Counted from the stretch's first letter, positions 708-58,085 are shown. The stretch is DNA of 64,000 nucleotides from a virus (IMGVR_UViG_3300043411_002995:47706-111705), one strand, 5' to 3'. Program-made: numbers and translations. The notes: a model not told the origin generated them from the letters alone.

Positions 708-1007
708 CTAGGGCCGACGGCGGTTGGCCATCCGCCCCAGGGCCTTGAGGAGCACGGCGGCCAGGGCGCCGCCGGCCGCCCCCTTGCCCAGGGCCCCCAG
801 CGCCGTCCCCTCCGGTCCGTCGTAGGGGTTGCCGGTGGCGAGGGCCTTGGCCTTGGAGGCGCCGTGGAGCACGCCCGAACTCAGGGCGCCGGTCGCCACC
901 AGGCGCTCGACCAGGCGGTCTGGGCGCGGCGCCAGGAAGCCGGCGGTCTTCCGCAGCGGGCTGACCGCGGTCCGAACGAGCTCGTCGCTGAAGGCCTGGA
1001 GCTTCAT
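708..1007 (-). CDS. small basic putative head/internal protein with AFSDELVRTA...RKTA tag
   Basis: ATG at 1007 overlaps the tube stop (TGATG); MKLQAFSDELVRTA matches the N-terminal motif shared by many ORFs here. Confidence 0.75.
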   Translation of the reverse strand: MKLQAFSDELVRTAVSPLRKTAGFLAPRPDRLVERLVATGALSSGVLHGASKAKALATGNPYDGPEGTALGALGKGAAGGALAAVLLKALGRMANRRRP

Positions 1008-1798
1008 CACTGGTTCGCGTAGAGCGGCTGGCCGGCGCCGGCGAGCCGCATGCGGATGGGGCGGATCTGGTCGAACTGCAGCGACACGCCCTCCATCAGC
1101 AGGACCGAGCCCGAGGAGATCGAGAGCTGGTGGCCCTGGATGTAGCACTCCTCGAGGTAGACGGCGCCCACCGTCATGTCGAGCTGGTTGCGGAAGTAGA
1201 TCGCCAGCCCGGTCGGCTGGTTGAAGATGTCCGACGCCAGGTTGAGCCACAGGTCGTCGTAGCCCGGGTTGTACTTCACCCGGTGCAGCTGGGACTGCAG
1301 GAGGGGCAGGTCCAGCATCGAGGCGTTGGGGTCGGGCACCTCGACGCCGCCGACGTTGATCGTCGCGCCCTTGGGCTTGTGGTTGAACTGGAACGGCGCG
1401 TCCGCCGCCGACTGCTTGTAGTGAGCGTAGAGCGCCTTCATCAGCGACGGCCCGTGGTAGAGCACGCGGCCGAGGGTGACCGAGCCGACGGTCCGGCCCG
1501 GGATGAAGTAGCTGCGGTTCGAGCCGATCTCGAAGATGCGCTGCAGCTGCTTCGACTGCGAGAGGCCGACGTTCTCGAGGACGCCGATCGGGAAGACCAT
1601 GTCCCCTTCGTCGGTGGTGTCGAGATCGCCCTCGGCGCCGGGCGGGCCGCCGGTGATGTCCGTGAGGCGCGGCGGCCCGGCGGCGATGAGCGTCGTCTCG
1701 GCGGAGACGAACTCGCCGCCGAGCAGCTCGGCCTGGACGTGGTGGTTGTGGAAGTCCCAGTTGTTGAAGGACGTGGTGGCTGCGGGGCGAAGGGGCAT
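1007..1798 (-). CDS. tail tube protein
   Basis: Directly downstream of sheath; IGVLENVGLSQSKQLQRIFEIGS..YFIPGR and C-terminal LEECYIQGHQLSIS are tube-like. Confidence 0.75.
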   Translation of the reverse strand: MPLRPAATTSFNNWDFHNHHVQAELLGGEFVSAETTLIAAGPPRLTDITGGPPGAEGDLDTTDEGDMVFPIGVLENVGLSQSKQLQRIFEIGSNRSYFIPGRTVGSVTLGRVLYHGPSLMKALYAHYKQSAADAPFQFNHKPKGATINVGGVEVPDPNASMLDLPLLQSQLHRVKYNPGYDDLWLNLASDIFNQPTGLAIYFRNQLDMTVGAVYLEECYIQGHQLSISSGSVLLMEGVSLQFDQIRPIRMRLAGAGQPLYANQ

Positions 1799-1827
1799 CG
1801 GCGGGTCTCCTTACCGGAACCGGTCCA

Positions 1828-4653
1828 TCAGACCAGGAGGGTCAGCGTGATGTTGTTGAGGGGCAGCGGCACGCTGATGTCGATGTCGACCTCGACGGTG
1901 TCCGGCTGCGAGGAGGATTCCTCGATCCGCGACATCTGCCCGCCGCGGAGCGGCGCCCCGACGCGCGGCGCGCGCTGGGACTTGAGGAACTCGATGCCGC
2001 CCTCGCCGCGGGTCTTCAGGACGTCCATCAGGCCGTCCGTGATGTTGTAGATCCCGAGGAACGGCCGGAACAGCCCGCGGAAGAACCGGGCGATCAGGTC
2101 GACGTTCTTCGTGACCGAGAACTCCTGGAAGTAGATGGTGGAGACGTCGGTGGTGAGCTGGTGGCGGATGCTCAGGGCGGCGTCGACCACCGGCTGGACG
2201 AACACCATGTTGCCGCCGCCGGCGATGGTGTCGAGCTGGGTGTCCGAGAACAGGTCGTCGGAGTGCTCGCGGCCGACGAAGCCGGTCACCGCCAGGTTGG
2301 TCATGCCGGCCTGGCTGGGCAGCCCGGCGGTGAGCCCGGCGATGACCGGCCCAGCGAAGTACCCCGGGACCTTCGTCGCCAGGGCGTTCACCGAGATCGC
2401 CAGGACGTCGGGCCAGGTGTGGACGCACCGACGCGACGCGAACGACGTCGCGTAGCCGGCGATGAGCTGGGCCTGCTCGGTCAGGCTGAGGTCGCGGGTG
2501 ATCCGGTACTCGACGTCCTCGAGCGTGCCGCCGAAGCCGGCCGTCGGGTCGGAGGCCAGGGTGAGCTGGCTCTCCGAGACGATCGCCTCGATCTCGTGGC
2601 GGGTGCCGGTGATGTACGCCTCCTCGTCCGCGGACGGCTCGATCGAGACGATGTCGAGCACGGTCAGCGTGGTGGTGGTGAGGCCGTTGAACTCCTCGGT
2701 CACCGGCACGGTCGTGTTGTCGGTCTTCACCTGGGTGGGCGAGATGACCGTCTCGATCACGTGGTCGTCGTTGTTGGCCCCGTTGGTGGCGCCGGCGACG
2801 CGCAGGACGCGGCCGACGTCGGCCGCCGTGAAGGCCGCGCCGAGGACGGTCCACACCCGCGAGGTGCCGTTGACGCCGTCCGCGTTGACGTCGCGCCCGG
2901 GCTCGCGGTTGATGCCGTAGACGGCCTGGGTGACGCCGCCACCGAAGGTCTCGTTGGCGCCGGGGGCCTCGACCGTCAGCACCGAGGTGGTGCTGACGAC
3001 CGTGCCGATCGTGAACGCGCCGTTGTTGCCGGCGTTGGCGGCGCCGCGCACGAAGAGCAGCTTGCCGACGTCGCCGGCGACGAAGGCCCCGTTGACGAAC
3101 GACCAGGCCTTGGTCGCCGCCACCACCGCGTCCGCGGCGTTGTGGGCGACCTCGCGGTCGAGGTCGCAGATCCACGCTCGCGTGGTCGACAGCATGACCT
3201 CGGGGGTGTCGGGCTCCGGGTCGACCGTGACGCGCGCGCCGCTGACGATCGTGAGGATCTCGTACTCGACGTCGTTGAGGGCCGTGGTCGCGCCGTCGAC
3301 GATGATGAACCGGCCGACGTCGGTGCCGGTGAAGGACGCCGCCGTCATCTGGATCACGTCGGCCGGCGCGTCGTCGAACCAGTCGCGCTCGTTGGGGGTG
3401 ACCGAGCGGTGGACGCCCTCGACGGGGAGGTAGTCGGTGATCTCGAGGAAGTACCCGACGCCGACGTCGTCGGTGATGAACTGCCCGTTGGTGGGGTCCT
3501 TGAAGGTCAGGTTGGTCGCACCGCTGGTACCGTTGCCGGTGCCGGCGCTGGTCGCGACGCCGAGGCCGCTGGCCGGCACGACGACCTCGAGCTCGACGAG
3601 CTTCCGGTTGAAGATGCCGACGCGCTCCTTGCCGACGGTCGACGCCGACATCCCATCGACGTGCGCCTTCACCAGCTGGTGCACCGCGGTGTTGTGGGTC
3701 ATCACCGCGATGGCGTAGACGTCCTTGGCCTCGAGGTACTCGAGCGCGTCCTGGAACGCCTGCTCCTCGTCGTCGAGGAAGCCTTCGTCCAGGCCGACGA
3801 AGCTGACCTCGGTGGTCGTGTTCTGGATCGCCAGGTTGACGCCGTAGGCGCCGACGTTGGAGGGGACCACGGCGCCGACGCCGAAGACCGCCTCGATCGA
3901 GTCGAGGTCGGTGAAGACGGTCAGGGCGTTGGCCAGGTCGGGGCGGATGGCGCGCCACGACAGGACGACGTTGCCCTCGACGACGTCGAGCGGGGTCGCG
4001 TCGGTCACCGACTGGAGGCCCGAGGCGATCTGGACGCCGGTCGCGGTCGGGGTGATGCTGCGGTCGCCGAACGAGGTGACGGGGTAGACCTCCTCCTCGC
4101 GGAACTCGAGCACGCGGTAGACGATGTTCGAGAGGGGCAGGCCTCCGCTCTGCCACTCGGCGGCGACGATCAGCTCGTTGTCGCTGTTCTTGCCGATGAC
4201 GAGCTTCCGCCCGAGGTCCGCGGCGGTGACGCCGCCGCCGGAGATGATGTCGACGTAGAACGTCGGGGCGCCGGCGGCATCGGGGTCGAACGCGGCGAAC
4301 GCGTCGGTGGTCACGTCCTGGAAGAGGTTGGGCGTCGCCAGCTTCCCGGTGATGGCCTGCGCCTTCTTCACCAGGTAGGCGTCGGTCAGGGTCACGCCGA
4401 CCGGCTTGTGGGCGTTCGCCTCGGCCTCGGCCTCCGGCACGTCGGAGAGGTCGACGACGGCGCCGGTGGTCAGCCCCGTGTACGGGAAGATGCTGGTGCC
4501 GAGCTCGTCCTCGGAGTAGATCCCCGCCACCACCTCATCGGCGATCTGGAAGCCCGGGGCCACGACGCACACGGGGAGGCTGGGAAGGGACAGCGAGACG
4601 GCGGCATCCTGGAACTCCTGGATGACTTCGATTGCGGGGCGGCGGTAGGCCAT
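1828..4653 (-). CDS. tail sheath protein with inserted repeat domains
   Basis: 941 aa; C-terminal sheath-like core (VPGYF...AGL, IRHQLTTD, QEFSVTKNVD, PLPLNNITLTL); followed by tube gene. Confidence 0.85.
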   Translation of the reverse strand: MAYRRPAIEVIQEFQDAAVSLSLPSLPVCVVAPGFQIADEVVAGIYSEDELGTSIFPYTGLTTGAVVDLSDVPEAEAEANAHKPVGVTLTDAYLVKKAQAITGKLATPNLFQDVTTDAFAAFDPDAAGAPTFYVDIISGGGVTAADLGRKLVIGKNSDNELIVAAEWQSGGLPLSNIVYRVLEFREEEVYPVTSFGDRSITPTATGVQIASGLQSVTDATPLDVVEGNVVLSWRAIRPDLANALTVFTDLDSIEAVFGVGAVVPSNVGAYGVNLAIQNTTTEVSFVGLDEGFLDDEEQAFQDALEYLEAKDVYAIAVMTHNTAVHQLVKAHVDGMSASTVGKERVGIFNRKLVELEVVVPASGLGVATSAGTGNGTSGATNLTFKDPTNGQFITDDVGVGYFLEITDYLPVEGVHRSVTPNERDWFDDAPADVIQMTAASFTGTDVGRFIIVDGATTALNDVEYEILTIVSGARVTVDPEPDTPEVMLSTTRAWICDLDREVAHNAADAVVAATKAWSFVNGAFVAGDVGKLLFVRGAANAGNNGAFTIGTVVSTTSVLTVEAPGANETFGGGVTQAVYGINREPGRDVNADGVNGTSRVWTVLGAAFTAADVGRVLRVAGATNGANNDDHVIETVISPTQVKTDNTTVPVTEEFNGLTTTTLTVLDIVSIEPSADEEAYITGTRHEIEAIVSESQLTLASDPTAGFGGTLEDVEYRITRDLSLTEQAQLIAGYATSFASRRCVHTWPDVLAISVNALATKVPGYFAGPVIAGLTAGLPSQAGMTNLAVTGFVGREHSDDLFSDTQLDTIAGGGNMVFVQPVVDAALSIRHQLTTDVSTIYFQEFSVTKNVDLIARFFRGLFRPFLGIYNITDGLMDVLKTRGEGGIEFLKSQRAPRVGAPLRGGQMSRIEESSSQPDTVEVDIDISVPLPLNNITLTLLV

Positions 4654-5340: not shown

Positions 5341-5861
5341 GGGGCACCCGGGTGGCGGCGGTTGACGGTGGCCGTGGCCTGGTCGTAGGCGTCGACCACG
5401 CCGTTCCGCAGGACGTCCGTCGTGGTCTGCTCCACGACCCGATCCTGCTCCTGCTGCTTCTGCTCACCAAACAGGGCGGCGAGCGAGATCGTGCGGAAGG
5501 TCAGCTTGGTCTCGCCGTCGGCCCCCTGGGCTGCGCTGGGCACCCCGGAGCCGGGCGCGAACAACTCCTCGACCGACCCGGCCTCGTCGCCGAGCTCGCC
5601 GGCGACCATCTCCGAGCTCGCGGCCAGGACCGCGCCCTGGTCCTCGGAGTCGATCACCATCCGGTCACCCTCGCTGGTCACGCGCACCGCCTGGGCCCGC
5701 AGGGCGGCCGCGACGTCGATGCCCGGGTCGATGCGACCACGCAAGCGGGTCTGGAGGTTGCCCGCCAGGATCGTCCGCGCCTCGGCGTCGACCTCATCCA
5801 GCCGGGCGACGCCGGCGGTGTCCTTCGGGCCGAAGAAGATCCAGTCGTTGAACCCGCTCAC
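5337..5861 (-). CDS. hypothetical protein (neck region)
   Basis: 4-nt overlaps with both neighbours, GC3 bias. Confidence 0.65.
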   Translation of the reverse strand: MSGFNDWIFFGPKDTAGVARLDEVDAEARTILAGNLQTRLRGRIDPGIDVAAALRAQAVRVTSEGDRMVIDSEDQGAVLAASSEMVAGELGDEAGSVEELFAPGSGVPSAAQGADGETKLTFRTISLAALFGEQKQQEQDRVVEQTTTDVLRNGVVDAYDQATATVNRRHPGAP

Positions 5862-6115
5862 TCACCGCCCCCGCTCTTCGAGGCGTAGTCCACCATCTGG
5901 TTCGGCGAGGTCAGGGGCGTGGGCGCGCGCTTCGCGGACGCGGGCTTGGGCTGCAGCGGCGCACCGGACTTCAGCCCTGTCTTGGCGTTGGGGCCCTGGG
6001 TCTGGTCCATGACGTCAGCGACGCCGGCGTCGTACGGCGCCGGCGCCTCGTGCTGCTGGGGGAACGCCCCCAGCTTCACGAGCTCGTCCACGAATCCACG
6101 GAGGTAGGGTCCCAT
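5858..6115 (-). CDS. small putative head/internal protein with GFVDELVKLG tag
   Basis: ATG at 6115 coupled to the upstream stop; MGPYLRGFVDELVKLG. Confidence 0.75.
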   Translation of the reverse strand: MGPYLRGFVDELVKLGAFPQQHEAPAPYDAGVADVMDQTQGPNAKTGLKSGAPLQPKPASAKRAPTPLTSPNQMVDYASKSGGGE

Positions 6116-8109: not shown

Positions 8110-9006
8110 TCAGGTCAGCGTCATCTTGGCCGCGGCGCGCAGGTTGCCGTAGCCCATGCCGACGTACTCCCAGGTCTGCCACGACACCATGTCACCGCGC
8201 TTCTCGATGTAGAACTTGGTGTCGTTCAGGATGTAGAAGTTGCCGAGGTACTTCGGGTCCGTGAAGATGTACAGGGTGCCGGGCACCACGATCGACGACT
8301 TGATCGTCACCACCAGCTTGTGGCCGAGGATGGTGTTGTACTTGTAGCCGTTGACCAGGATCTCGCTGGCCAGCGGGGAGCCGATCACGGCGCCCTCCTG
8401 GGTCATGAAGTCGTCCCAGTCGGCCTTGTGCATCAGGATGGTGCCGACGGCGAGCTCGTCGGTGTCCAGCGCCTTGAAGAGCTTGACCAGGTTCTCGCTG
8501 GTCGCCGGGCCGGCGGCCGCGGGGGCGATGGTCTTGCCGTTCGCCGCGATCACCGCGTCGGTGAACTCGATGAACTTGCCGTCCTCGATCTTCTGGATGT
8601 CCTTGACCGAGTTCTCCTCGATGACCTTGGTCACCGGGTAGTCGTAGGCCAGGAGCTCCGCCTCGTTCTTCTTGAACTTGTCGGACTCGATCTTGAAGAA
8701 CGGGATCTCGTAGCGGTCGCTCTCGATGTACCGCTCGTGGGTCTTGCCCCGGAAGTTGACCGCGGCCGCCGAGCTCTGCGGCTCGATGTCGACGATCTTG
8801 ACCAGGGTGTCGTGGTTGACCGACCGCTGGCAGTCGGCCTTGGTGAGGTACTCCGGCGGCAGGATGCTGCGCACGAAGCTGACCTCGCGGAGGCGCTCGC
8901 GCACGAAGGCACCGCCGGCCTGGGCGGCCTTCTCGAGGCCGTCCGCCGTGTCCAGGCGCGAGACGAAGAGGTTGTTGAAGGTGGCCGCGTCGATCTGGGG
9001 GTCCAT
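8110..9006 (-). CDS. major capsid protein (HK97-fold expected)
   Basis: 298 aa; order protease...decoration-MCP-adaptor; F.R.RLRE..F.R.ILPP and C-terminal WEYVGMGYGN; GGAG RBS. Confidence 0.75.
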   Translation of the reverse strand: MDPQIDAATFNNLFVSRLDTADGLEKAAQAGGAFVRERLREVSFVRSILPPEYLTKADCQRSVNHDTLVKIVDIEPQSSAAAVNFRGKTHERYIESDRYEIPFFKIESDKFKKNEAELLAYDYPVTKVIEENSVKDIQKIEDGKFIEFTDAVIAANGKTIAPAAAGPATSENLVKLFKALDTDELAVGTILMHKADWDDFMTQEGAVIGSPLASEILVNGYKYNTILGHKLVVTIKSSIVVPGTLYIFTDPKYLGNFYILNDTKFYIEKRGDMVSWQTWEYVGMGYGNLRAAAKMTLT

Positions 9007-10005: not shown

Positions 10006-10863
10006 TCAGCCGTTGACGATGACCACGCCGGACTTCTTCTTCTCGGGCTCGGACTTCCCGCCGTTGATCGCGCGGTACGCGAGCGCGCCGCCGCCGAGGT
10101 ACAGCGCCGGCTTCTTCATCTTCTTGAGCTGGTCGTTGGTCACGCCGAGCTGCGTGCCGCCGATGTTGACGCCGAGCGCCTTGCCACCGGCCGCCCCGCC
10201 GCTCGCCGCCGAGGCGGCGGGCGTGACCGCCTGCCGGAGCTCCTTCATGGCGGGCAGGTGGGCGAAGCCCTTGTTGTCGCCCAGGATCGCGTGGACGGTG
10301 GCGTCGGGGTACTTCTTCCGGAGCTTCTCGACGAACTTCATCTTCTCGATGTCGCCGAGGCCATCGTAGGCCCGCGCCGAGCTCTTCCAGCTGCGGAGCG
10401 CGCTCTCCGCATGCTGCTTCGCCTTGTCGACGGTGGACCCGGCGCGACTGGAGCGCAGGCTCGAGCCGATCTCGCCGAAGAACCGGCGGATGCCGCCGGG
10501 TGCCGCGGCCTTCTCGAGGAACTCGGCGATCGCCTCGGGCGAATGGCCGGCCTCGAGCGCCACCTTGATGAAGGCGGCGGTGTCCACGGTGGGCGCCGCC
10601 GGCGCCGCCGTCTTGGTCTGGCCGCCGTCGATGGCGGCGATCTCCGCCATCGTCCGACGGATGATCTCGACGGACGCGACCTTCTCGGCCAGGGTCGCGT
10701 TCCCCGCCGCGACCTGGTCGGCCGGCGAGGCCTCGGCTGCACGGCGACACCGCGCGGCGAGCTTGGAGAAGTCGGGCTTCGCCGGCGCCGCCGTCTTGGT
10801 GTGCCGAGCGCCGAGGTTGTTCACCCCGGTCTCGTTGAGCAGCTCGTCGAGTGTGAAGCCCAT
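10006..10863 (-). CDS. putative head/internal protein with multiple K-x-A sites
   Basis: KTAA, KLAA, EKVA, KTAA, KVA, EKAA followed by a basic Gly/Ala-rich C-terminal part. Confidence 0.7.
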   Translation of the reverse strand: MGFTLDELLNETGVNNLGARHTKTAAPAKPDFSKLAARCRRAAEASPADQVAAGNATLAEKVASVEIIRRTMAEIAAIDGGQTKTAAPAAPTVDTAAFIKVALEAGHSPEAIAEFLEKAAAPGGIRRFFGEIGSSLRSSRAGSTVDKAKQHAESALRSWKSSARAYDGLGDIEKMKFVEKLRKKYPDATVHAILGDNKGFAHLPAMKELRQAVTPAASAASGGAAGGKALGVNIGGTQLGVTNDQLKKMKKPALYLGGGALAYRAINGGKSEPEKKKSGVVIVNG

Positions 10864-10901: not shown

Positions 10902-11387
10902 TCAGCGGCCCATGTGCTTGGCGAGCAGCCGCGACACGTACTGCGGATCCGCCGCCATCTTGGCGAGGATCTTCTTCTTCCGCGCCCGGACCTTGGCGGC
11001 CGAGGTCTTCTCCTCGCCGCTGTCCTCCTTGGACTCGCGCGGCTCGGTCTTCTCCTCGTACTCGGAGTCGTCCTCCTCGTCGCCCTCCTTCTTCTCCTTC
11101 TTCTTGCCGCCCATGGCCGCGGCCATGGCCTCCTCGAAGGCGGACTTCTTGTCCGCCTCGCCGGCGCCCGGCATCGCCTCGTCGACGGCGATCTTCACCA
11201 TGTCGGCGAAGACGTGGTGGGCGAGGGTACGACCGATCGCGTCGTAGTCCTGCGCCTGCTTGAGGAGGCCGGGGTCGACCTGGCTGAGGTCGCGGGCGGG
11301 CGGGAGCCCCTGCGCGGCGCGCACCTGCGCGACCTTCTCGTGATCGCGCGACTGCATCGCGCCGAAGACTGCCTTGAGCGAGTTCAT
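10902..11387 (-). CDS. scaffold-like paralog A
   Basis: ATG 11387 with GGAG RBS; KQAQDYDAIGRTLAHHVFADMVKIA; acidic stretch. Confidence 0.7.
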   Translation of the reverse strand: MNSLKAVFGAMQSRDHEKVAQVRAAQGLPPARDLSQVDPGLLKQAQDYDAIGRTLAHHVFADMVKIAVDEAMPGAGEADKKSAFEEAMAAAMGGKKKEKKEGDEEDDSEYEEKTEPRESKEDSGEEKTSAAKVRARKKKILAKMAADPQYVSRLLAKHMGR

Positions 11388-11433
11388 GGTGTGCTCCGCG
11401 TTCGTGGGGGGAGGTGGGTCGGCTACGCCAGGC

Positions 11434-12147
11434 TCAGGCCTGGAGGTCGCGGACCGTGGCGAAGCCGAGCGGCGAGCCGCCACCCAGGCCGATCGCGGCC
11501 GCCTCGGGGTCGGTGCCGGTGCCCTGGCCGGCCGAGATGGTCTTGGTCGGGGCGAGGGTGTCCGAGTAGGTCTGCTTCGGGCCGGGGCCCGAGGTGACCA
11601 TCTTCTCGTCGTGGTTCGCCGACCCGGCGAAGTTGGTCTCGAGCGTGGGCAGGCCGCGCTCGCCGAGCGCCGGGGTCTTCGCCCCCGACTCCGACTCGGT
11701 CATCTGGTTGTCGGGGGCGGTCGTCGCCAGGCCCTCGGCCAGCTTGTGGAACTCGGAGAAGAAGCCGCGCGCCATGATGCGGCCGGCGGCGTCGTACTCC
11801 TGCGCGACCTTCATGATCTGGCCGTCGTCCTCGTCGGCGACCTGCTCCTCGGCCTCGGCGGCCGCGAGCTTCTCCGCCATGGCGGCGAAGTCGACGTCGT
11901 CCTGCTCGACCTCGGGCGCCGGCGCGTGAGCGGCGGCCGCGGCCTGCTTGACGTGATCCTGATCGGTGAGCGCGAGGTAGAGGCTGGCGAGCGAGTTCAT
12001 CTGGTCTCCTCCGGAGGCGAGCTTGGTGTGGTCGCCGCCGGTGGCGGCAGGCTTGCGCGCCGGCGGCGCGCCGGTCGCGGAATCGTGGGTCGTGGTCTCG
12101 GTGCTGGCGGACGCGAACTTGTTCATCAGGTCGCTGAGGGTGGGCAT
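11434..12147 (-). CDS. scaffold-like paralog B (possible internal start at 12000)
   Basis: KVAQEYDAAGRIMARGFFSEFHKLA; GGAGGAG RBS before internal Met. Confidence 0.7.
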   Translation of the reverse strand: MPTLSDLMNKFASASTETTTHDSATGAPPARKPAATGGDHTKLASGGDQMNSLASLYLALTDQDHVKQAAAAAHAPAPEVEQDDVDFAAMAEKLAAAEAEEQVADEDDGQIMKVAQEYDAAGRIMARGFFSEFHKLAEGLATTAPDNQMTESESGAKTPALGERGLPTLETNFAGSANHDEKMVTSGPGPKQTYSDTLAPTKTISAGQGTGTDPEAAAIGLGGGSPLGFATVRDLQA

Positions 12148-12149: not shown

Positions 12150-13967
12150 TCAGATCTCCTTCATGCGCCGCGCGAGCCGCTGGACCGACTCGAGGATCGA
12201 GGCGTCGAGAGCCGGATCGCTCATCAGCCCGCCGAACTTGGTGAGGTGGTGAGTCGCGCGATCGTGCGGTGCTGCAACAGACGCGAGTCGCTCGAAGCCT
12301 CCACGGCTCCCGGCTTGCGATCGTTGCTGTTGAACACCTGCATGGATGTACGCGAGTGGGATCAATCCTGTGATCCCGGCCGTCTTGCGCTGATGGTAGG
12401 CTGGGCCGTTTTTTGCGTCAAGTCCGGCACCTGTGCCGTGGGGCTCCAGATCCCGCGGCGCCCCCAGCTGTTGCGCTGCCACGGTCGCCCCGACACCTGC
12501 GCTGATCAGGAGCGGGAGCATCCAAGGGTGCTTCGCGATCGCGCGCACCGGCGACGGCGCCTTCTCGACCAGCTGGGGGAACGCCCGACGGAAGACCATG
12601 AACCCGGCGGCGAGTGCGAGGCTGGCGGGCACCACGCCGGGCATACCCGACGAGAGCCGTCGCTGCTCGTTCGTCATGGGATACCACTGGCTGTCGCGGT
12701 TGTACCCCTCGATCTCCCCGCGCTTCTCCATCCGCTCGAGGCGGGCGGCGAGGATCTCGGGATAGCAGCTCCGGTCGGCGATGTAGGGGCGCAGCTGCAG
12801 CGCGACCTTCTCGCTGACGTCGTGCTCGCTCAGGTGCTCGAGCTCGCGTGCCCACTTCGGCATCGGGCCAGGCCGGTGCTCGTCGAACACCAGGCGGTGG
12901 GCCGCCAGCTTGTCCGCGAGGGCACGGGCGCCCTGCTTGACCAGGATGATCCGCTGGAACTCCTGCGGGCGCAGGTCGATCCCCAACGCGGCGAGCGTGG
13001 CGAAGATCTCGCGCAGCGGGAAGCCCGTGAGCTGGTTGAGCAGCGCCGGCGGCAACGCCGGCTCGGTCGACTTGACCGCACCGGCGTCCTCCATGAAGGC
13101 GTCGACCTTCGCCTGGTCGGACGGCGTCACGCCCTCGATCTTCGTCTCGCCCGCCGGGACCTCCTTGGTCAGGTCGGCGGTCTTGCGCGCCGAGCTCGCC
13201 TTCTCGGCGGCCGCGTACTTGGCGTAGAAGCTCTCGCCGAGCTCGGCCGAGCTCGGCCGGATCTCGTAGATGCACCCATCGTGCGCGACCTTCTTCAAGA
13301 CGTGGCTCGCCTTCTCGGCACCGATCGTCACGAAGGAAATGTCGAAGAACTTCGGCTTGTCGTTGAACGCGAAGACCCGCCGTCCGTCCGGCAGGATCTT
13401 GTTCATCTGGTAGCGGAGGTGCGGGCAGTACTCGGCCCGGTTCTTCGCGCGGTTGCCGCAGACGGAGCAGCGGTCCCACGGGACCCGGCACCCCATCGAG
13501 ACGTCCCAGTACCGGTTCGCGGCGAGGTCGCCGAGGATGTCCTGGCACTTCGCGTCGTCGACGCGGACGATCAGCAGGACGCGGTGCATGCCCGGGTCGT
13601 AGGCCGAGAGCGTGACCTTCTCGCCGTACGCCCGCGCCGGGTCCTTGTTGACGTGGTGCTTGAACGGGTAGGCGTAGTGCTGGAACGTCTCGTAGCCGTA
13701 CTCGGGACCGGGGTGGCGCAGCGCCTCCTCGGGGAAGTAGTCGCCGTTGACGTTCGACCCGTAGTACTCGCCCGACCCCATCGCGTCGATGAGCAGCTGG
13801 GTCTTGCCCGGGATCGGCGCCGCCGATCGCAGGTACTGCTCGATGGACGCGGGGAGCTCGCGCGCCATCTTGATGTGGCCGATCGACCGCTCGAGGTTGG
13901 CCTCGATCGGGAAGATGTGCGGGCCGGTCCGCGCGTCGTACCCAGCGTAGTTGATCAGCTTGTACAA
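12150..13967 (-). CDS. prohead maturation protease with Zn-finger insertion and long C-terminal extension
   Basis: Probable TTG start 13967; FKHH, VSMGC (putative catalytic Ser), CSVC...CPH, FFDISFV.IGA resemble HK97/assemblin-fold prohead proteases; upstream of MCP. Confidence 0.7.
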   Translation of the reverse strand: MYKLINYAGYDARTGPHIFPIEANLERSIGHIKMARELPASIEQYLRSAAPIPGKTQLLIDAMGSGEYYGSNVNGDYFPEEALRHPGPEYGYETFQHYAYPFKHHVNKDPARAYGEKVTLSAYDPGMHRVLLIVRVDDAKCQDILGDLAANRYWDVSMGCRVPWDRCSVCGNRAKNRAEYCPHLRYQMNKILPDGRRVFAFNDKPKFFDISFVTIGAEKASHVLKKVAHDGCIYEIRPSSAELGESFYAKYAAAEKASSARKTADLTKEVPAGETKIEGVTPSDQAKVDAFMEDAGAVKSTEPALPPALLNQLTGFPLREIFATLAALGIDLRPQEFQRIILVKQGARALADKLAAHRLVFDEHRPGPMPKWARELEHLSEHDVSEKVALQLRPYIADRSCYPEILAARLERMEKRGEIEGYNRDSQWYPMTNEQRRLSSGMPGVVPASLALAAGFMVFRRAFPQLVEKAPSPVRAIAKHPWMLPLLISAGVGATVAAQQLGAPRDLEPHGTGAGLDAKNGPAYHQRKTAGITGLIPLAYIHAGVQQQRSQAGSRGGFERLASVAAPHDRATHHLTKFGGLMSDPALDASILESVQRLARRMKEI

Positions 13968-13971
13968 GCGA

Positions 13972-14811
13972 TCACTTCCACCGGGCGTTCCCGCCCGCGA
14001 CGGACGCTGACGGCCTGACCCGCGGCGTCTGCGGCGCCTGCTCGCTCCGAGCTTCGGCCGCCTGCATCCGCTGCACCTTCTCCTCGATGGTGACCGGCCC
14101 ACGCTTCGGCGCCGTCGGCCGGACTGCGCCGCCCATCCGCCCCTCGCGGATCTCGCCCACGTTGCGGTTGGCATCGGACCAGCGCTGAGCCTTGTTCGAG
14201 GGGGCGTTGTAGGCGGCCTCGGCGCGCGCCTTGGTCGCGGTGTAGTCCGTCCTCCGCGCCTGCATCCGCGCCTTGCGCGCGTCGGCCTCGGCCTGCGTGA
14301 GCTGCTTCCCAGAACCTGACGCGCGCGCCTGGGCGTTGACCAGCTCGCCGCCGACCATCACCTTGCGGCCCGGCGCGTTGTTGGCGTCGAACTTCTTGTT
14401 GTAGGCCTGCTCGCTGATGACGCGCTGCGCGCGCTGCGGGGCTGTCTCCCACGGCACGCCGGGGTCACCGCGACCGCCACCGCCCCCCTGCTTCTTCGGG
14501 GTGGCGGGCGGTGGAGTCGGATCTCCGGCCTTGCTCGGGCGGTAGCCGGGCGACGGACGCCATCCCTGGGGTGCGTTCTTCGCCGGCGACTCCATCTTCT
14601 GGGTCGGGATGGCGCCGAGCAGGTTGCCGCCGGGCGCGCCCATCTGGTTGGGCGGCTTGGGCGCCGGCGCGCCGGGGACGCCGGTCGAAGGAGGGCGAAC
14701 GATGCCGCCGGGCGGCGGCGGACGTGGAACCGACGGCACGCCAGCCGGCGCACCCCAAGGCCCTGCGACCTTGAGGAGCTCGTCGGCGAAGCCTGCGAGG
14801 TATCGGTTCAC
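13972..14811 (-). CDS. Pro/Gly-rich basic putative internal protein with GFADELLKVA tag
   Basis: GTG start, MNRYLAGFADELLKVAG. Confidence 0.75.
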   Translation of the reverse strand: MNRYLAGFADELLKVAGPWGAPAGVPSVPRPPPPGGIVRPPSTGVPGAPAPKPPNQMGAPGGNLLGAIPTQKMESPAKNAPQGWRPSPGYRPSKAGDPTPPPATPKKQGGGGGRGDPGVPWETAPQRAQRVISEQAYNKKFDANNAPGRKVMVGGELVNAQARASGSGKQLTQAEADARKARMQARRTDYTATKARAEAAYNAPSNKAQRWSDANRNVGEIREGRMGGAVRPTAPKRGPVTIEEKVQRMQAAEARSEQAPQTPRVRPSASVAGGNARWK

Positions 14812-14823: not shown

Positions 14824-15228
14824 TCAGCCGCCCTGCGGGCGCGGCGGGAGCGGACCGTTGCCCAGGGTGACCTTGGCCTTCGGCGCGGCCTTCGGCGCGG
14901 GCATGCCCGGGTTCTTGTGCTGGCCGGTGACCGGGTTCATCTTGGTCTTGCTGCCGAACGCCTGGCCGGGGGCGTTGGTGTCGGTGGGCGCCGGGACCTT
15001 GGGCACGCCGCCGCCCGGGCCCTTGCGGCCGGCGCGGCCACCCGCGAACGGGTCGTAGCCCGAACCGGTGGCGTCGGCGAGCTTGCTCAGCTCGTCGGCG
15101 AACGCGCGCGCGGTGATCCGGCCCGCGGCGTCCTCCTCCTCCGCCTGCTTGATGATCTCGGCAGCCTGCTTCTCGAGCTCGGCATCCTTCGACGCCATGG
15201 TGTCGTACACGTCCGTGAGGGTTCGCAT
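14824..15228 (-). CDS. scaffold-like paralog C
   Basis: KQAEEEDAAGRITARAFADELSKLA; GGAG RBS. Confidence 0.75.
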   Translation of the reverse strand: MRTLTDVYDTMASKDAELEKQAAEIIKQAEEEDAAGRITARAFADELSKLADATGSGYDPFAGGRAGRKGPGGGVPKVPAPTDTNAPGQAFGSKTKMNPVTGQHKNPGMPAPKAAPKAKVTLGNGPLPPRPQGG

Positions 15229-15246: not shown

Positions 15247-16236
15247 CTAGCGCCCCGTGATCAGTTTTCGCACGCCGCCCAGAACAGTACCAGCGGCGTT
15301 GACAGGCGGCTTGCGCCCGAACATCCGCCCCACCCGGCGCGTCGCGCCGCCGGCGAGGCCCAGGCCCATCTTGCCGAGGACCAGGGCGGCGATGGCCGAC
15401 CCCTGTGGGCTGCTGGTGATGGCCTTCACGGCCTCGTCGGCCTTGCCGGCCGCGCCGCGCGCGGCGATGCCGACGTTCTTCTTGAACTCGCTGCCGCGAT
15501 CGCCGATGTAGTTCGAGGCGCGGTTCGCGTACTCCTCGGCGGAGGCGGCGCTCTTCTCGATCCCGAAGGACGTGCCGAGGAACCGGGGCGAGGCGTGCTT
15601 GCCCATCTGCGAGCTCGAGGTTGCGCGGAGCGACATCGAGCCGCCCTCCACGAGCCCGTGCTTCGCGCCGGGGGCGCCGTGGCTGGGCGCGCGCGCCTCG
15701 CTGCTGTGGAAGCGCTCGCCACCGGCCTCGAGCGGCGCCGGCTGCTCCTTGGCCGGACGGTGGAACCCGGTCGGCAGGCCGCTGTCGGCGTCCCAGTCGC
15801 TGGGCGCCGCGCCCGCGCACTTCACCGCGCCCTTCTTCTTGGGCTGGCCGGTGCCGTACATGCCGCCGCCGGCCTCCTCGCCACCGGAGTCCATCCCGCC
15901 AGGGGTCACGGCGGGGCTGGCGCCGGCCGGCTCGCTCGGCTTGGCCGGCTTGGTCGACGGGTCGTCCTTCGCGGCCTCCGCCATCTTCTGGTGGAAGGTC
16001 GCGTCGTCACGCCCGGGGAGGTCGCGGAAGAACCGCCCGCCGCGCGGCTGCGCGGCCTTCTGGAAGAACATCCCATCGCCAGCGACCTTCCCGAGCGGCT
16101 GGCGCTCGGGGTTGGTCTGCGGGTGCTTCTTCTCGGGGAGGTCGCTCATGTTCGGGGTCTCCTTCGCCCACTCTCGCGCCTTCTTGGGGTTCGTGGCGAA
16201 GAAGAGGCGCTGCTGGGCCTTGGACTCGAAGGGCAC
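15247..16236 (-). CDS. putative head/internal protein
   Basis: MPFESKAQQRLFFA N-terminus; KVA, KAA, KMA, KCA, KHA, KSA sites; basic amphipathic C-terminus. Confidence 0.7.
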   Translation of the reverse strand: MPFESKAQQRLFFATNPKKAREWAKETPNMSDLPEKKHPQTNPERQPLGKVAGDGMFFQKAAQPRGGRFFRDLPGRDDATFHQKMAEAAKDDPSTKPAKPSEPAGASPAVTPGGMDSGGEEAGGGMYGTGQPKKKGAVKCAGAAPSDWDADSGLPTGFHRPAKEQPAPLEAGGERFHSSEARAPSHGAPGAKHGLVEGGSMSLRATSSSQMGKHASPRFLGTSFGIEKSAASAEEYANRASNYIGDRGSEFKKNVGIAARGAAGKADEAVKAITSSPQGSAIAALVLGKMGLGLAGGATRRVGRMFGRKPPVNAAGTVLGGVRKLITGR

Positions 16237-55363: not shown

Positions 55364-55393
55364 ATTCTAGTGGCGCGTCGCTGGGGCCGTCAA
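55364..55393 (-). promoter_or_regulatory. sigma70-type promoter TTGACG-N18-TAGAAT
   Basis: -35 at 55388-55393, -10 at 55364-55369. Confidence 0.7.
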
Positions 55394-55401
55394 TCCGGCC
55401 A

Positions 55402-57798
55402 CTAGATCTCGACCGCGTCCGTGACAGTTGGACCCGTGTTGTCGACGCGCACCAGTGCCGCCGACGCGAGCTTGTGACCCTGGAAGGCGATGGCCGGCGC
55501 CGCGGCGACGGTCAGATCACCGGTGGTGACGTCGGCGGCGGTGATCTCCTGGACCTCGGCCCCGCCGTTCGTGATGTCGATCAGCAGGAGCGCCGTCACC
55601 TCCGTGTTGGAGAGCCAGCTGAGGTCGGCGTCGGTCTTGGTGTTGAACCCCCCGCCGGGCGCCGAGTAGCTGAAGCCCGTGCGAGCGATGTGCTCGTTGC
55701 GGAGGCAGACGGCGTCGTGGTTGAGGCGGCTCTGCTCCTCGGTGAGAACGGCGTAGGTGAGGTTGAGCACGGTCTGCAGGTCGGCGTCGGGGATGTCGAT
55801 CGCCAGCAGCGTGGAGCTGAACCTGGCGAGCACCGCCCGGTAGCCGTAGAACGGCCCCGACGGGATCCAGATCGTGTCGCCGGCGTCGACGCCGAGCGTG
55901 ACGAAGTTGGCCATGTTGTCGAAGAAGTTGCCGGTGGCCTGGCTGCCGGAGCCGTCGATCCCGCCCGTGTGGACGAATCGGTAGAAGTGATCGAACGAGA
56001 AGGTGCTGTTGAACTCGTTGTTCGCGACGAGGGTGCTCAGGTCGATCGCGACGTCGAGGTCGACGTCGTCCTCGGTGACGGTGAGGGTCTCGGTCTCCTC
56101 GGACTGGAAGGAGAAGACGTACTCGGTCCACTGCGGCTTCATGTTGTCGAGGAACGTCACCAGCTCGGTGACGTTCACGCGGCGGGTCACCGCCTCGACC
56201 AGGATCTGCGGCAAGAAGAGGTGGTGCTCGAGCAGCCGCAGGGCCTTCGTCTCGTCGGTGTCGCCTGGCCCGCGGCTCGCGTCCGACGTGAGGAACCGGT
56301 TGATGCCGGCGCGGCCGAGGCGGTTCGCCACGAAGCCCGGCTCGTTGTTCCGGTCGATGATGCTGACGCCGGTGGTGAGCGAGTCGAACCGCGCGACCGC
56401 ATCACCGCGGGCGACCACGGGGGCGAGGCCGGTGGGGATCAGGTAGGTGATGACCTGGCCGCGTGGGTCGGTGACGTCGACCTCCCCGAGCGTCGTGTCG
56501 AGGCGGGTGACGGTGCCGGCGCGCTTGGCGAAGGGGAGGCCCAGCAGGATGTGCATGCCTCGCTGGAGATTCCCAGGCGTCGAGCCCGTCCAGAACGTGT
56601 ACCAGAGACCCTGCAGCGCGAGCTTGTACTCCTCGGAGTTCTCCCGGAAGAAGTCGATCAACACCCCGAAGTTGCGGTACGGCGTCTCGCGGTTGACCTG
56701 CGTGACCTCGGCCCACATCTGCCGGCGCCGGTCGGCCTCGGGGCCGAGCGACGAGACCCGGAAGGCCACGCGCGAGGCGAGCAGGCCGCCCTGCACGACG
56801 TAGTCGACGCCCTCGATCAGCACCTGGGTGGGGTCGTCGACCAGGTCGCGGAGGTTGGGGATCGAGACGATCGCCTTGTCGACCTTCAGGCCGTGGGGGA
56901 AGGCGTTGATGGTGTAGGGCACATCCCCGGCCTGGGTCGAGGGGAAGACTTCGGCGACGGTCAGCGCGATCGGGCTGACCACGGCGTTGATGGTGTAGGT
57001 CCCCGCGTTCGGCCCGCCGGTGATGACGAGCGTGCGCCCGGCCTTCACCGCGCTGAAGTCCGCGTTCACGTCGGTGAGCGTCGAGTCCTCGACCTCGCCG
57101 CTCGATCCGGTCATCGGCAGGGTCGCCGTGCCGTTGTAGGTGTACATCGCCCGCACCGTGGCGCCGTCGGCGATCGTGGTGCCGGCGATGCGGGCCACGG
57201 TGCCAGCCACCTCGTCGAGCTCGTAGTCGAGGTCACGCGTGTAGTAGCGGTGCTGGTAGCGGACGGTGACGGTCTCGTCGGTCGGGATGCGTCCGTCGTC
57301 GAGAGCCTGGATCACGCCCGTCGCCAGGTTGATCGCGTAGTCCCGGTTCAGCGTGAACTGCTGGCCACCCAGGACGACGGCCACCGTGCCCGGGATGATG
57401 TCGCCGTACCGCAGCGATCGCGCGGCGGTGTCGAAGAAGCGGAGGGTCTCCTCGTGGAAGATCTGGCCCGAGCTCGAGGTGAGCTGCAGCGTGTCGAAGA
57501 ACGCTGTCTCCCTCGAGACCGAGACCGCCGCCAGCAGCACGAGGGTGAGCTCGTCGGTCTGCGGGAAGAGGTCGCAGGTCTCGTCGTCCATGACGAGACG
57601 GTTCCAGCGCTCGCTGAGGAACACGGGGACCTTGGCGATCTCGGTCGAGAGGCCCGCCTCCATGACCTTCTGCTCGAGGTTCGAGGCGATCTGCACCTGC
57701 GCCGACCAGAAGGTCTCGAAGAGCTTGCGGTCCTCCGTCGGCAGGAGGTCCCACACGTCCTCGAGGAACCTCCACAGGAAGCCAGCGGAGACGCTCAC
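55402..57798 (-). CDS. baseplate wedge protein
   Basis: 798 aa after J-like gene; GSTPGNL..G..ILLG and FLDNMKPQWT wedge-like motifs. Confidence 0.65.
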   Translation of the reverse strand: MSVSAGFLWRFLEDVWDLLPTEDRKLFETFWSAQVQIASNLEQKVMEAGLSTEIAKVPVFLSERWNRLVMDDETCDLFPQTDELTLVLLAAVSVSRETAFFDTLQLTSSSGQIFHEETLRFFDTAARSLRYGDIIPGTVAVVLGGQQFTLNRDYAINLATGVIQALDDGRIPTDETVTVRYQHRYYTRDLDYELDEVAGTVARIAGTTIADGATVRAMYTYNGTATLPMTGSSGEVEDSTLTDVNADFSAVKAGRTLVITGGPNAGTYTINAVVSPIALTVAEVFPSTQAGDVPYTINAFPHGLKVDKAIVSIPNLRDLVDDPTQVLIEGVDYVVQGGLLASRVAFRVSSLGPEADRRRQMWAEVTQVNRETPYRNFGVLIDFFRENSEEYKLALQGLWYTFWTGSTPGNLQRGMHILLGLPFAKRAGTVTRLDTTLGEVDVTDPRGQVITYLIPTGLAPVVARGDAVARFDSLTTGVSIIDRNNEPGFVANRLGRAGINRFLTSDASRGPGDTDETKALRLLEHHLFLPQILVEAVTRRVNVTELVTFLDNMKPQWTEYVFSFQSEETETLTVTEDDVDLDVAIDLSTLVANNEFNSTFSFDHFYRFVHTGGIDGSGSQATGNFFDNMANFVTLGVDAGDTIWIPSGPFYGYRAVLARFSSTLLAIDIPDADLQTVLNLTYAVLTEEQSRLNHDAVCLRNEHIARTGFSYSAPGGGFNTKTDADLSWLSNTEVTALLLIDITNGGAEVQEITAADVTTGDLTVAAAPAIAFQGHKLASAALVRVDNTGPTVTDAVEI

Positions 57799-58085
57799 CG
57801 GCGGTCCTTGTACGCCCGGTTGAACTTCTCGCGGTCGATCGGCTCGCGGGTCGTGGCAGGCGCGCCGAGCTGCCCCGGAACGACGGCGATCGGCGAGGCG
57901 GCGGTCAGCGGCAGGCGCGTGCCGGCGAGCGCCGGGTTGAGCAGGATGGACGGCGGGGTCACGCCCGGGGACATCATCCCGTGGGGGATCTCGCTGGTGT
58001 TGATCTCGCCGTCCTCCGCCCGCTTGTACAGGCAGCCCATCGCCCCGACCTTCACCAGCTCATCGACGAAGCTGAGCAAGTTCAT
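57795..58085 (-). CDS. small protein with SFVDELVKVG tag
   Basis: MNLLSFVDELVKVGA...YKRA; 4-nt overlaps on both sides. Confidence 0.7.
   Translation of the reverse strand: MNLLSFVDELVKVGAMGCLYKRAEDGEINTSEIPHGMMSPGVTPPSILLNPALAGTRLPLTAASPIAVVPGQLGAPATTREPIDREKFNRAYKDRR

Follow-up and report, generated by a model that had tools for sequence, protein, structure and literature searches.

The question raised by a 64,000-nucleotide stretch of viral DNA (IMGVR_UViG_3300043411_002995:47706-111705; the window, with positions counted from its first letter) is what a short F-x-D-E-L-x-K-x-[AG] peptide, here called the tag, does on a set of proteins that otherwise seem unrelated. The original prediction took it for a portable label that loads proteins into the phage head and is then cleaved off. 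The eight instances on which this was based are all present at the positions and on the strands given below, and the two variants that were named, GFFSEFHKLA and VFADMVKIA, are real and lie in 11434-12147 and 10902-11483, respectively, both on the minus strand.

The tag and its carriers in the window

Across the 111.7-kb genome of this uncultivated phage, F-x-D-E-L-x-[KR] is matched eight times, against a mean of 0.05 and a maximum of two in 300 residue shuffles of the six-frame translation. With a Met three to seven residues upstream there are seven matches against none expected in the same shuffles, and the best permuted-order version of the pattern is matched only twice; a chance origin of the tag set is excluded. 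A tag HMM run over the genome, a check that had been proposed, returned nine matches at 18-25 bits, the next best scoring 3.7 bits, and none of them came from the non-structural half of the genome (positions 1-47705); every copy falls within the structural half. Counting the two degenerate copies, ten proteins are tagged, six of them 4-7 residues past the true start codon, one at a nested ATG and three inside scaffold-like paralogues.

The motif can be written roughly as φ-φ-x-[GAS]-F-x-D-E-L-x-K-[LVI]-[AG], where φ is a hydrophobic residue, and is predicted to form an amphipathic helix of 14-18 residues, with a hydrophobic moment of 0.35-0.55 compared with 0.20-0.27 in shuffled sequences. The Glu is present in 61 of 61 collected instances and the Phe three residues before it is fixed, in a set gathered by a DNA pattern and a regular expression so that the invariance of both residues is partly built in. 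A secretion or lipoprotein signal peptide was considered and set aside on inspection, the tag being acidic with a central D-E and no continuous hydrophobic run. Of the viral matches to a 29-nt pattern, 12 of 28 are tag-like, as against 4 of 120 in bacterial genomes (p 2e-7), and an N-terminal tag was not found in the sample of bacterial genomes; on these sequence comparisons the tag is phage-specific in its placement.

Coordinates below refer to the minus strand except where stated. Protein A (99 aa; 708-1007) carries the N-terminal tag MKLQAFSDELVRTA at 963-1007, has a pI of 11.3 and ends in a Gly/Ala-rich hydrophobic segment; protein B (85 aa; 5858-6115), with MGPYLRGFVDELVKLGA at its N-terminus (6065-6115), is rich in Pro, Ala and Gln and has a net charge of zero. 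Protein D (279 aa; 13972-14811), encoded directly upstream of the protease, begins with (GTG)NRYLAGFADELLKVAG at 14761-14811, beyond which it is basic, Pro/Gly-rich and poorly conserved. Protein G (112 aa; 19293-19631; N-terminal tag MDAFLTGFADELVKVGG at 19581-19631) and protein H (165 aa; 22332-22829 on the opposite, plus strand; N-terminal tag MTPFLQAFTDELVKLGA at 22332-22382) are both basic with one hydrophobic segment, and protein I (96 aa; 57795-58085; N-terminal tag MNLLSFVDELVKVGA at 58041-58085) is encoded with a fibre-like gene of 798 aa on one side and a gene of 684 aa on the other. The proposed starts of A, B, G and I coincide with a step in third-position GC, and the ATG of gene A overlaps the stop of the upstream gene; the GTG of gene D lies four codons past a stop, and gene H has no alternative start because its ATG is only seven codons past the upstream stop.

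In these six the tag follows a true start; the copy described as following a Met at 16582 lies inside protein F (283 aa; 16241-17092), an ORF that is open and coding over its whole length. Protein F comprises a zincin (HExxH) domain (residues 1-162), a linker, the tag helix (residues 174-187; DNA 16529-16582) and a basic tail, and in the model the tag helix is separate from the folded domain. The domain matches Peptidase_Mx1 at an E-value of 2e-4, under the Pfam cut-off, and a PPEP/M34-type zincin fold at 5e-5. A conserved internal Shine-Dalgarno sequence and ATG at 16582, just before the tag, suggest that the gene also yields a nested product of 113 aa in which the tag would be N-terminal.

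In the remaining three carriers the motif is extended and internal. Protein C (237 aa; 11434-12147), acidic and scaffold-like, holds YDAAGRIMARGFFSEFHKLA at 11734-11799, and its paralogue protein E (134 aa; 14824-15228) holds EEDAAGRITARAFADELSKLA at 15073-15138, the Phe being residue 43. The third, protein J (10902-11483), probably starts at an ATG at about 11387 and has the degenerate DYDAIGRTLAHHVFADMVKIA at 11187-11249. With the tag masked these three are weak paralogues (C-E, E-value 6e-8; C-J, 0.004), and it is only the other seven that are unrelated, as had been proposed for all, the best blastp E-value among them being 0.09; the tag is evidently portable across unrelated proteins. Downstream parts had been described as mostly basic and often hydrophobic: a strongly basic pI (10-11.3) is found in only four carriers, one being acidic (pI 4.5), and a Gly/Ala-rich hydrophobic, near-transmembrane segment in four. 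The described scatter over tail, neck, head and baseplate operons could be followed only in part, through the genes identified as sheath, capsid protein, protease, large terminase, portal and a fibre-like protein, the remaining neighbours carrying no annotation.

Conservation in close relatives and cargo in distant phages

Three syntenic relatives (G001-G003; 59-67% GC) each have eight tags at orthologous positions, where the tag outlasts the drift in the rest of each protein; the conservation in relatives that the original prediction had asked about is therefore present. The tag is the best-conserved block in proteins A (with orthologues in G001-G003), D, G and H, and in protein D almost the sole block kept among four orthologues; an orthologue of protein G, P0002, is 84% identical, and orthologues of protein E include P0003, P0005, P0009 and P0013. 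This retention in the three relatives indicates that the tag is under selection. Its conservation extends over a GC range of 51-72%. One departure is found in G002, where the Asp at position +2 is lost in four of eight tags compared with 1 of 25 in the other three genomes (p 0.008).

More distant uncultivated phages of 115-200 kb with the same protease family bear the tag on other proteins, and the protease family was present in all five of the distant tag-bearing genomes tested; no cultured phage carrying the tag was found in the searches made. The tag forms an N-terminal extension of ∼20 aa on SNF2 helicases with 32-39% identity to gp217 of Salmonella phage Arash; gp217 itself has no such extension, so that the tag was gained or lost as a discrete unit. 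The Arash virion proteome contains gp217 in abundance (38 peptides, 1148 spectra), although this is weak evidence of true packaging because the virion preparation also held enzymes such as ribonucleotide reductase (PMC10585845). Other tagged proteins are one of 2990 aa that contains an LPD23 domain and some in which KTSC, InPase and GNAT domains occur. LPD and KTSC domains are characteristic of polyvalent proteins, a class for which packaging, injection and cutting into modules have been predicted (PMC5512222). Such domains occur in the relatives' L037 (LPD23), P0001 (KTSC, InPase and GNAT) and P0023 (SNF2), and the polyvalent arrangement is confined to relatives, protein F of the window having one peptidase domain.

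That the carriers are merely diverged paralogues, in which a recognisable N-terminus survives as a relic with no shared function, would suit C, E and J, which are real paralogues, but is highly improbable for the set as a whole. The other seven carriers retain no residual similarity, the folds that bear the tag are unrelated (zincin peptidase, SNF2 helicase, InPase and GNAT), the untagged Arash helicase orthologue points to gain or loss as a discrete unit, and the tag is conserved across the whole GC range given above.

Many relatives have two to six copies in one protein, of which some are internal and some lie in tandem at a spacing of 18-24 residues; in the helicase orthologues and giant polyvalent proteins there are often two to five copies between domains. 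Those of P0001 lie on both sides of the InPase domain and ahead of the GNAT domain, and those of P0023 on both sides of the SNF2 helicase. With this many copies the motif cannot be a purely N-terminal address label, and its main role may be in processing or docking.

The protease, the scaffold-like proteins and the role of the tag

At the centre of the tag-rich cluster is a prohead serine protease (12150-13868, start codon tentative; minus strand; phrog_18299), itself without a tag, which is flanked by E, D, C and J, with C directly downstream and D directly upstream. Its H72 and S124 are invariant, its C-terminal half contains hydrophobic segments and its N-terminal domain is modelled with a gp21/assemblin fold, resembling T4 gp21 (5jbl_A; Z 8.8 over 128 aa, 3.2 Å, near the tool's quoted noise range) and the VZV protease (Z 8.6). 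Confidence in this fold is moderate because the mean pLDDT of the model is only 68. The major capsid protein (8110-9006, minus strand; phrog_2522, E-value 1e-15), also untagged, is 31% identical to the capsid protein of Arash and 24% to that of phage G. Protein C has 112 invariant columns across four genomes. In the unrelated contigs L025 and L054 the protease is followed, as in the window, by a small motif-bearing protein, and in L054 the capsid-protein family of the window comes a few genes further on; the motif is at the extreme C-terminus of this small protein in L025 and internal in L054, as in C, E and J.

The proposed explanation, the probability of which we put at about even, is that the tag is a head-core docking and maturation-cleavage motif, comparable to the capsid targeting sequence (CTS) of T4 and derived from a scaffold helix. 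The motif would have begun as a helix of scaffold-like core proteins C, E and J around a gp21-type prohead protease, and would then have been copied to the N-termini of unrelated cargo and to domain boundaries of larger proteins. Tagged proteins may dock to whatever partner the scaffold has, be it the core itself, the inner surface of the capsid or the protease, and be enclosed while the shell assembles. The maturation protease could then cut them at or beside the motif, either after the invariant Glu, as do the T4 and phiKZ-type enzymes, or after K-φ-[AG], where conservation ends, so that small basic proteins, the peptidase, the helicase and modules of polyvalent proteins would stay in the head and be delivered together with the DNA. 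The steps of docking, packaging, cleavage and ejection are inferred; the tagged helicases and polyvalent proteins are cargo such as one would expect in virions. Internal tags in several copies are more in keeping with a docking or processing element than with an address that is always N-terminal; they also weaken the head docking and cleavage reading, because several or tandem tags are superfluous for a simple address label. The lack of the motif in the capsid protein, portal and protease likewise counts against this reading, as does a Leu at P1′, which Glu-specific enzymes of the gp21 type would not usually have (that of SPN3US prefers Ser; PMC10052503).

A fairly unlikely alternative is that the motif is a cleavage site only, the extended recognition sequence of a highly specific prohead or zincin protease acting on polyproteins and propeptides, and that head entry occurs by other means. 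The copies in inter-domain linkers of relatives would be explained in this way, as would the joint occurrence of tag and gp21-fold protease in five of five genomes, the predicted cutting of polyvalent proteins into modules (PMC5512222), and the invariant Glu, a residue found at P1 of the T4, phiKZ and SPN3US enzymes (PMC10052503). However, the loss of just 8-16 N-terminal residues from six small proteins would have no obvious use unless the peptide acts beforehand, proteases usually bind extended strands rather than a ∼14-residue helix with a conserved hydrophobic face, and the closely spaced tandem copies resemble multivalent binding. Furthermore, the motif was looked for and is absent in the capsid protein, portal and protease of the window genome, which, if it were the protease's site, would be uncut or cut elsewhere.

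Conversely, the motif could be a docking or co-assembly helix that is never cut and serves as a permanent N-terminal or inter-module anchor to the scaffold core, the inner surface of the capsid, the portal or a DNA-condensing core, resembling the capsid-binding end common to scaffold proteins and their mimics. The occurrence of an amphipathic helix in three scaffold-like paralogues and at the C-terminus of the L025 protein, the avidity suggested by multiple and tandem copies, and the loss of Asp in G002, which hints at drift against one common partner, are all consistent with such an anchor. It is nevertheless unlikely, as the gene for a gp21-type protease lies amid the tag-rich cluster and phages that have such a protease, T4 for one, normally degrade their scaffold proteins.

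Genes A, B and I sit among sheath/tail and fibre genes, which makes a tail-lumen or other destination possible. A function outside the head, whether host-factor or membrane binding or a tail-lumen or assembly-chaperone signal of late proteins, would also accommodate the near-transmembrane segments of four carriers and of the C-terminal half of the protease. It is made improbable by the extended form of the motif on proteins wedged between protease and capsid genes in several unrelated phages, by the addition of the tag to polyvalent proteins and to an orthologue of a virion-associated helicase, by the failure to find an N-terminal tag in the bacterial genomes sampled, and by the acidic, amphipathic character of the tag, which on inspection has no signal-peptide features.

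Comparison with known systems

The prohead proteases of giant phages (phiKZ gp175, that of 201phi2-1 and SPN3US gp245) are of the same fold class and cleave at A/S/G-x-E (Glu being a possible P1 here too), at N-terminal propeptides of many head and ejection proteins and at multiple sites per protein (PMC10052503, PMC5694885). SPN3US gp245 cuts after A-x-E and some of the propeptides removed are only 20-24 residues long (PMC10052503). Their motifs are of three residues within propeptides that are not conserved between substrates, whereas the tag has nine conserved positions, a free P3 in place of A, S or G, and would place Leu at P1′. The gp21 consensus L/I-x-E was rejected as the end of the tag, the residue two before the Glu being free (A 22, V 6, F 6 and L 6 among the 61 instances).

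DarB of phage P1 has an N-terminal capsid signal that brings a giant polyvalent-type antirestriction protein (methylase and SNF2-like helicase) into the head (PMC9024508), a cargo class matching the tagged helicase and polyvalent proteins; the Dar proteins of P1 have neither a consensus nor a motif in common, and P1 has no separate scaffold, whereas here one motif serves all cargo. Polyvalent proteins (Iyer et al., 2017; PMC5512222) share with tagged P0001, P0023 and L037 the LPD23, KTSC, InPase, SNF2 and GNAT domains, and their metallopeptidases recall the zincin domain of protein F. As proposed for the tagged proteins, they are predicted to be delivered with the DNA and cut into modules; the head anchor given for them is a MuF or portal fusion, and no inter-module motif like the tag was found in the available text (PMC5512222).

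Encapsulin cargo-loading peptides are likewise short and portable and send unrelated cargo inside an HK97-fold shell, but they are usually C-terminal, extended rather than helical and of a different consensus, with no protease or DNA. The tag was not assigned to this class, being N-terminal or internal, helical, F-x-D-E-L-x-K in sequence, accompanied by a protease and without a C-terminal Gly/Ser/Leu-rich peptide. Capsid-binding ends of scaffolds are reused in the nested genes C/Nu3 of lambda and UL26/UL26.5 of herpesviruses and by SaPI1 CpmB, which mimics the 80alpha scaffold C-terminus. As proposed here, a short scaffold helix is reused by another protein for procapsid entry, and the nested in-frame start of protein F recalls C/Nu3; there, however, the element is C-terminal and only one or two proteins have it, in contrast to about ten per genome here, mostly with an N-terminal element.

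The closest parallel is the CTS of the T4 internal proteins IPI-III and Alt, reportedly the subject of work by Mullaney and Black in 1996. To our knowledge there is no visible sequence relation between tag and CTS, and the tag differs in being a longer, conserved amphipathic helix with F, D-E-L and K, in lying also inside the scaffold-like proteins themselves, in its multiple internal or tandem copies on very large multidomain proteins of relatives, and in being known from sequence, with targeting and cleavage proposed. In both systems a short N-terminal peptide is the sole conserved part of diverse small, often basic proteins (as reviewed for T4 in PMC3012670 and PMC9026906; on sole conservation see PMC3012670), the genes are scattered, and a gp21-fold protease (here from the pLDDT 68 model) is encoded together with a multi-protein scaffold or scaffold-like core; a load-then-cleave logic would be common to both. 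In the window, six N-terminal tags and one at a nested start are found on proteins that are unrelated once the tag is masked. What stands of the proposed label is its portability, its restriction to the structural half, its conservation and its company of protease and scaffold-like proteins, though not a strictly N-terminal position. The T4 analogy is apt because of these features together with the virion-type cargo, the gp21/assemblin-fold protease and the sharing of the motif with scaffold-like proteins, and the most likely role of the tag is to mark proteins that are to enter the phage head and be cut there.

Distribution of the tag and its carrier proteins

A six-frame scan recovers all eight F-x-D-E-L-x-[KR] instances of the original prediction together with both of its variants. 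The strict pattern is present eight times, whereas 300 residue shuffles give 0.05 on average; seven copies have a Met 3-7 residues upstream (none in the shuffles), and no permutation of the tag residues gives more than two matches. A motif HMM built from nine copies scores those at 18-25 bits over the whole genome, a single viral contig of 111,705 bp and 68% GC (the window being its positions 47706-111705), where the next match reaches 3.7 and the first 47.7 kb contain no tag. A 285-aa protein encoded at 10006-10863(-) begins MGFTLDELLNE, a tag-like start in which an additional residue separates F from D-E-L and the Lys is missing; the tag HMM does not detect it.

The starts of proteins A (708-1007(-)), B (5858-6115(-)), G (19293-19631(-)) and I (57795-58085(-)) are confirmed by third-position GC, which climbs sharply at the ATG proposed for each. 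Protein D (13972-14811(-)) starts at a GTG four codons past a stop, and the ATG of protein H (22332-22829(+)) lies seven codons past the upstream stop. Proteins E (14824-15228(-)) and C (11434-12147(-)) have the tag at an internal site, following D-A-A-G-R-I-x-A-R, and protein J (10902-11483(-)) contains a third copy of this extended form, which is degenerate. The remaining tag, listed as following a Met at 16582, needs a correction: the site is inside a 283-aa ORF (protein F, 16241-17092(-)) that is coding throughout and forms a single ORF in three relatives. Just before the F tag (16583-16620), CAGGAGAA-N6-7-ATG is kept in all four genomes, namely the window and its syntenic relatives G001-G003, and encodes Q-E-K-x-A-M with locally rare codons (AAA, GTA, ACA, GCT). 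This conservation makes a nested in-frame translation start inside the zincin-peptidase gene likely, an arrangement that looks similar to the nested in-frame start of lambda C/Nu3.

None of the tagged proteins matches a Pfam or PHROG family, the sole exception being the N-terminal half of F, which contains HExxH, has a sub-threshold Peptidase_Mx1 match and, as modelled, resembles PPEP/M34-type zincins. Another HExxH motif (VLHELGHAADF) occurs in a 495-aa protein encoded upstream of F (17089-18576(-)); this protein, which also has several hydrophobic segments and matches neither Pfam nor PHROGs, may be a second metallopeptidase of the head module. A 329-aa protein at 15247-16236(-) begins (V)PFESKAQQRLFFATNPKKA, matches phrog_1375 weakly (E 3e-4) and is otherwise Gly/Ala/Pro-rich with a hydrophobic C-terminal segment.

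The description of the carriers as unrelated holds for A, B, D, F, G, H and I, which give no mutual blastp match once the 17 tag residues are masked (best E 0.09), but not for C, E and J, which are weak paralogues (C-E 6e-8 unmasked, C-J 0.004 masked). On the masked comparison paralogy was rejected as the full explanation of the tag; that mere paralogy underlies it is extremely improbable. A signal-peptide reading was rejected by inspection. The downstream parts, said to be mostly basic, are strongly so in A, D, G and H but acidic in C, and the hydrophobic helix said to be frequent corresponds to one Gly/Ala-rich hydrophobic segment in A, F, G and H.

Conservation and portability among uncultivated phages

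Relatives were sought in IMG/VR using a degenerate DNA pattern for the tag, which yielded 60 loci (∼25 clearly N-terminal) on contigs of 48-200 kb. G001, G002 and G003 (67, 63, and 59.5% GC) are syntenic with the window and each has eight tags at orthologous positions. When the four orthologues are aligned, the tag stands out as the most conserved block in A, D, G and H, and is nearly the sole one in D. In G002 (L096-L098) the Asp at +2 (F being 0) is lost from four of the eight tags (to S, Q, S, and R) vs 1 of 25 in the other three genomes (p 0.008), which hints that tags drift together, changing in concert against a common partner.

Among 61 distinct instances, the consensus comprises F at 0 and E at +3 (both 61/61), D at +2 and L at +4 (both 56/61), K at +6 (59/61), L/V/I at +7 (53/61), and A/G at +8 (59/61), flanked by [GAS] at -1 and hydrophobic residues at -4 and -3; the instances were partly gathered with a pattern requiring most of these residues, which exaggerates their invariance. 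The hydrophobic moment of the segment is that of an amphipathic helix, and in the model of F the segment is predicted with low confidence to form a separate helix after a disordered linker. When the same 29-nt pattern was applied to bacterial genomes, placement resembling an N-terminal tag was found in 4 of the 120 matches listed, compared with 12 of 28 in viral contigs (p 2e-7). Among those listed, the bacterial matches are mostly chance, internal occurrences in high-GC genes; they include no extended form and provide no clue to the host.

The tag is also found in distant phages, where it heads SNF2 helicases (L041, L069, and P0023), a 2990-aa LPD23 protein (L037), and 1274- and 524-aa proteins without known domains. 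The tagged helicases are 32-39% identical over ∼480 residues to gp217 of Salmonella phage Arash, which begins at the helicase core and is without the ∼20-residue tag. With 38 unique peptides and 1148 spectra, gp217 ranks with the most abundant proteins of the Arash virion proteome, obtained from a preparation that also contained metabolic enzymes (PMC10585845). No other tagged protein has an orthologue in Arash detectable by tblastn, C, E, and the N-terminus of G have no tblastn match among 50,697 phage records, and the tag profile finds no tag in Arash, Vibrio phage D69, or Bacillus phage G.

Profile searches of large protein sets returned mostly multi-tag proteins. The 1556-aa JGI metagenome protein P0001 contains KTSC (248-308), InPase (1042-1156), and GNAT (1384-1452) domains and five tags, at 815, 1006, 1180, 1308, and 1342, all within linkers. 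In P0023 the order is tag, SNF2, tag, tag, and P0022, P0028, and P0032 each combine an N-terminal tag with one or two internal copies; in several proteins tags stand in tandem at a spacing of 18-24 residues. KTSC and LPD domains, found here with InPase, are typical of the polyvalent proteins described by Iyer et al. (PMC5512222), for which packaging, injection and splitting into modules by peptidases are predicted.

The prohead protease and its neighborhood

Structural genes in the window were named by PHROG profiles and comprise those for tail sheath (1828-4653(-)), major capsid protein (8110-9006(-)), a protein with a head-maturation-protease region (12150-14174(-)), large terminase (22826-24805(-)), portal (40732-42765(-)), and a fibre-like protein (55402-57798(-)). 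By tblastn, the capsid protein is closest among cultured phages to that of Arash (31%), followed by Vibrio phages D69, D148, and D181 (30%) and Bacillus phage G (24%); the terminase is 25% identical to that of Arash. Judged from these sequences, the closest cultured relatives of the window phage are very distant.

The N-terminal domain of the protease, modelled from seven homologues (pLDDT 68), best matches T4 gp21 (5jbl_A; Z 8.8, 128 residues, 3.2 A), followed by the VZV protease (Z 8.6) and ∼30 herpes assemblins; the match comes from VIA-align only, as Foldseek alone gives nothing significant and there is no match in PDB by sequence. His72 and Ser124 are invariant. Residues ∼126-150 (13440-13520(-)) form a Cys-rich insert, C-x(8-9)-C-x2-C-x(10)-C-x-H, largely kept among the seven homologues and weakly like Cys-His zinc modules (Pfam C5HCH, E 0.011); a zinc ribbon within an assemblin-fold protease would be unusual, if true. 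The C-terminal half (12150-12700(-)) is a ∼350-residue extension with three hydrophobic, near-transmembrane segments, similar to ones in several tagged proteins.

The genes lie in the order E, D, protease, C, J, with the capsid protein further on, which we take to mirror the T4 order 67-68-21-22-23. The same protease family is directly followed by a small motif-bearing protein (extended form) in two unrelated contigs, L025, where the motif is at the very C-terminus of that protein, and L054 (the latter of 51% GC), where the same capsid family is encoded a few genes beyond. The protease family is encoded in all five of the more distant tag-bearing genomes tested (E 1e-42 to 2e-64). On a 183-kb contig (L002:806-946(-), L033, L038) a 47-aa ORF beginning MLCGFADELSKLG lies directly upstream of this protease family, in the place occupied by D in the window. 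Arash has the protease (gp222) and lacks the tags. Just upstream, gp220 and gp221, and these two only, have a weak look-alike start, L-x-D-G-[LI]-[LV]-K-x-A. The scaffold-position protein gp223 (L118:11505-12272) contains the unit E-K-A-A-A-V-N-x-L-I-x-x-G-x-x-F-x-E-A-V-E-L-V-K-E-A-S two to three times, a repeat that may correspond distantly to the extended motif. A tag function unrelated to the head is judged improbable.

Proposed function and comparison with known systems

The tag fits a motif by which proteins of the prohead interior are marked and which a shared partner reads. Its N-terminal position on numerous small proteins of unrelated sequence, its sharing with scaffold-like proteins, and its discrete addition to a virion helicase favour docking or targeting; the adjoining gp21-fold protease, the invariance of the Glu, and the copies placed between polyvalent-protein modules favour processing. 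Cleavage alone is unlikely, and docking alone quite unlikely. Both sets of points together lead to a combined reading, a dock-then-cleave signal that stems from a scaffold helix; this reading has about an even chance of being correct. Candidate cut sites are after the Glu and, as the original prediction suggested, after K-phi-[AG] (phi, hydrophobic), where conservation ends; the two are equally putative.

More broadly, the dock-then-cleave signal could constitute a clade-wide head-cargo code of uncultivated 110-200 kb phages, a tentative proposal. The helix would be copied from the scaffold's own assembly interface, would recruit proteins bearing it at the N-terminus or between modules into the procapsid by scaffold mimicry, and would also tell a gp21-type protease where to cut. 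As part of this proposal, the tag-bearing phages might, with similar reserve, represent a deep uncultivated clade, distantly akin to Arash and Bacillus phage G. If the code is real, sequence alone would suffice to read off the full injected set, with SNF2 helicases, zincin peptidases and giant polyvalent proteins among its members, and the tag would be a portable packaging signal. If the motif marks cargo clade-wide, the cargo of uncultivated phages could be listed in this way, a concrete peptide, protease and scaffold would be at hand for in vitro test, and scaffold evolution would be linked to cargo loading, a link already proposed for encapsulins. If it is a protease site only, it would represent a new extended specificity for the gp21/assemblin class and explain the cutting of polyvalent proteins into modules.

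The choice of proteins to be enclosed or injected is known for few tailed-phage systems (the T4 CTS, P1 DarB, and MuF or portal fusions) and is only predicted for polyvalent proteins. No Pfam or PHROG family covers the tag, no cultured phage was found to carry it, and no description of it was found in the literature searched. T4 gp21 cuts after L/I-x-E. SPN3US gp245 cuts after A-x-E (PMC10052503). The tag differs from the sites of these Glu-specific prohead proteases in having, if its Glu is P1, Leu at P1' and a free P3. The T4 CTS is the sole conserved part of diverse internal proteins (PMC3012670), and the tag resembles it in its N-terminal position on diverse proteins and in a putative docking or targeting role. 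In kind the tag would match this CTS, the propeptides of giant phages and the DarB signal of P1; what is new is its length and conservation, its presence in the scaffold-like proteins themselves, its use in several copies within polyvalent proteins, and its spread over a putative deep uncultivated clade.
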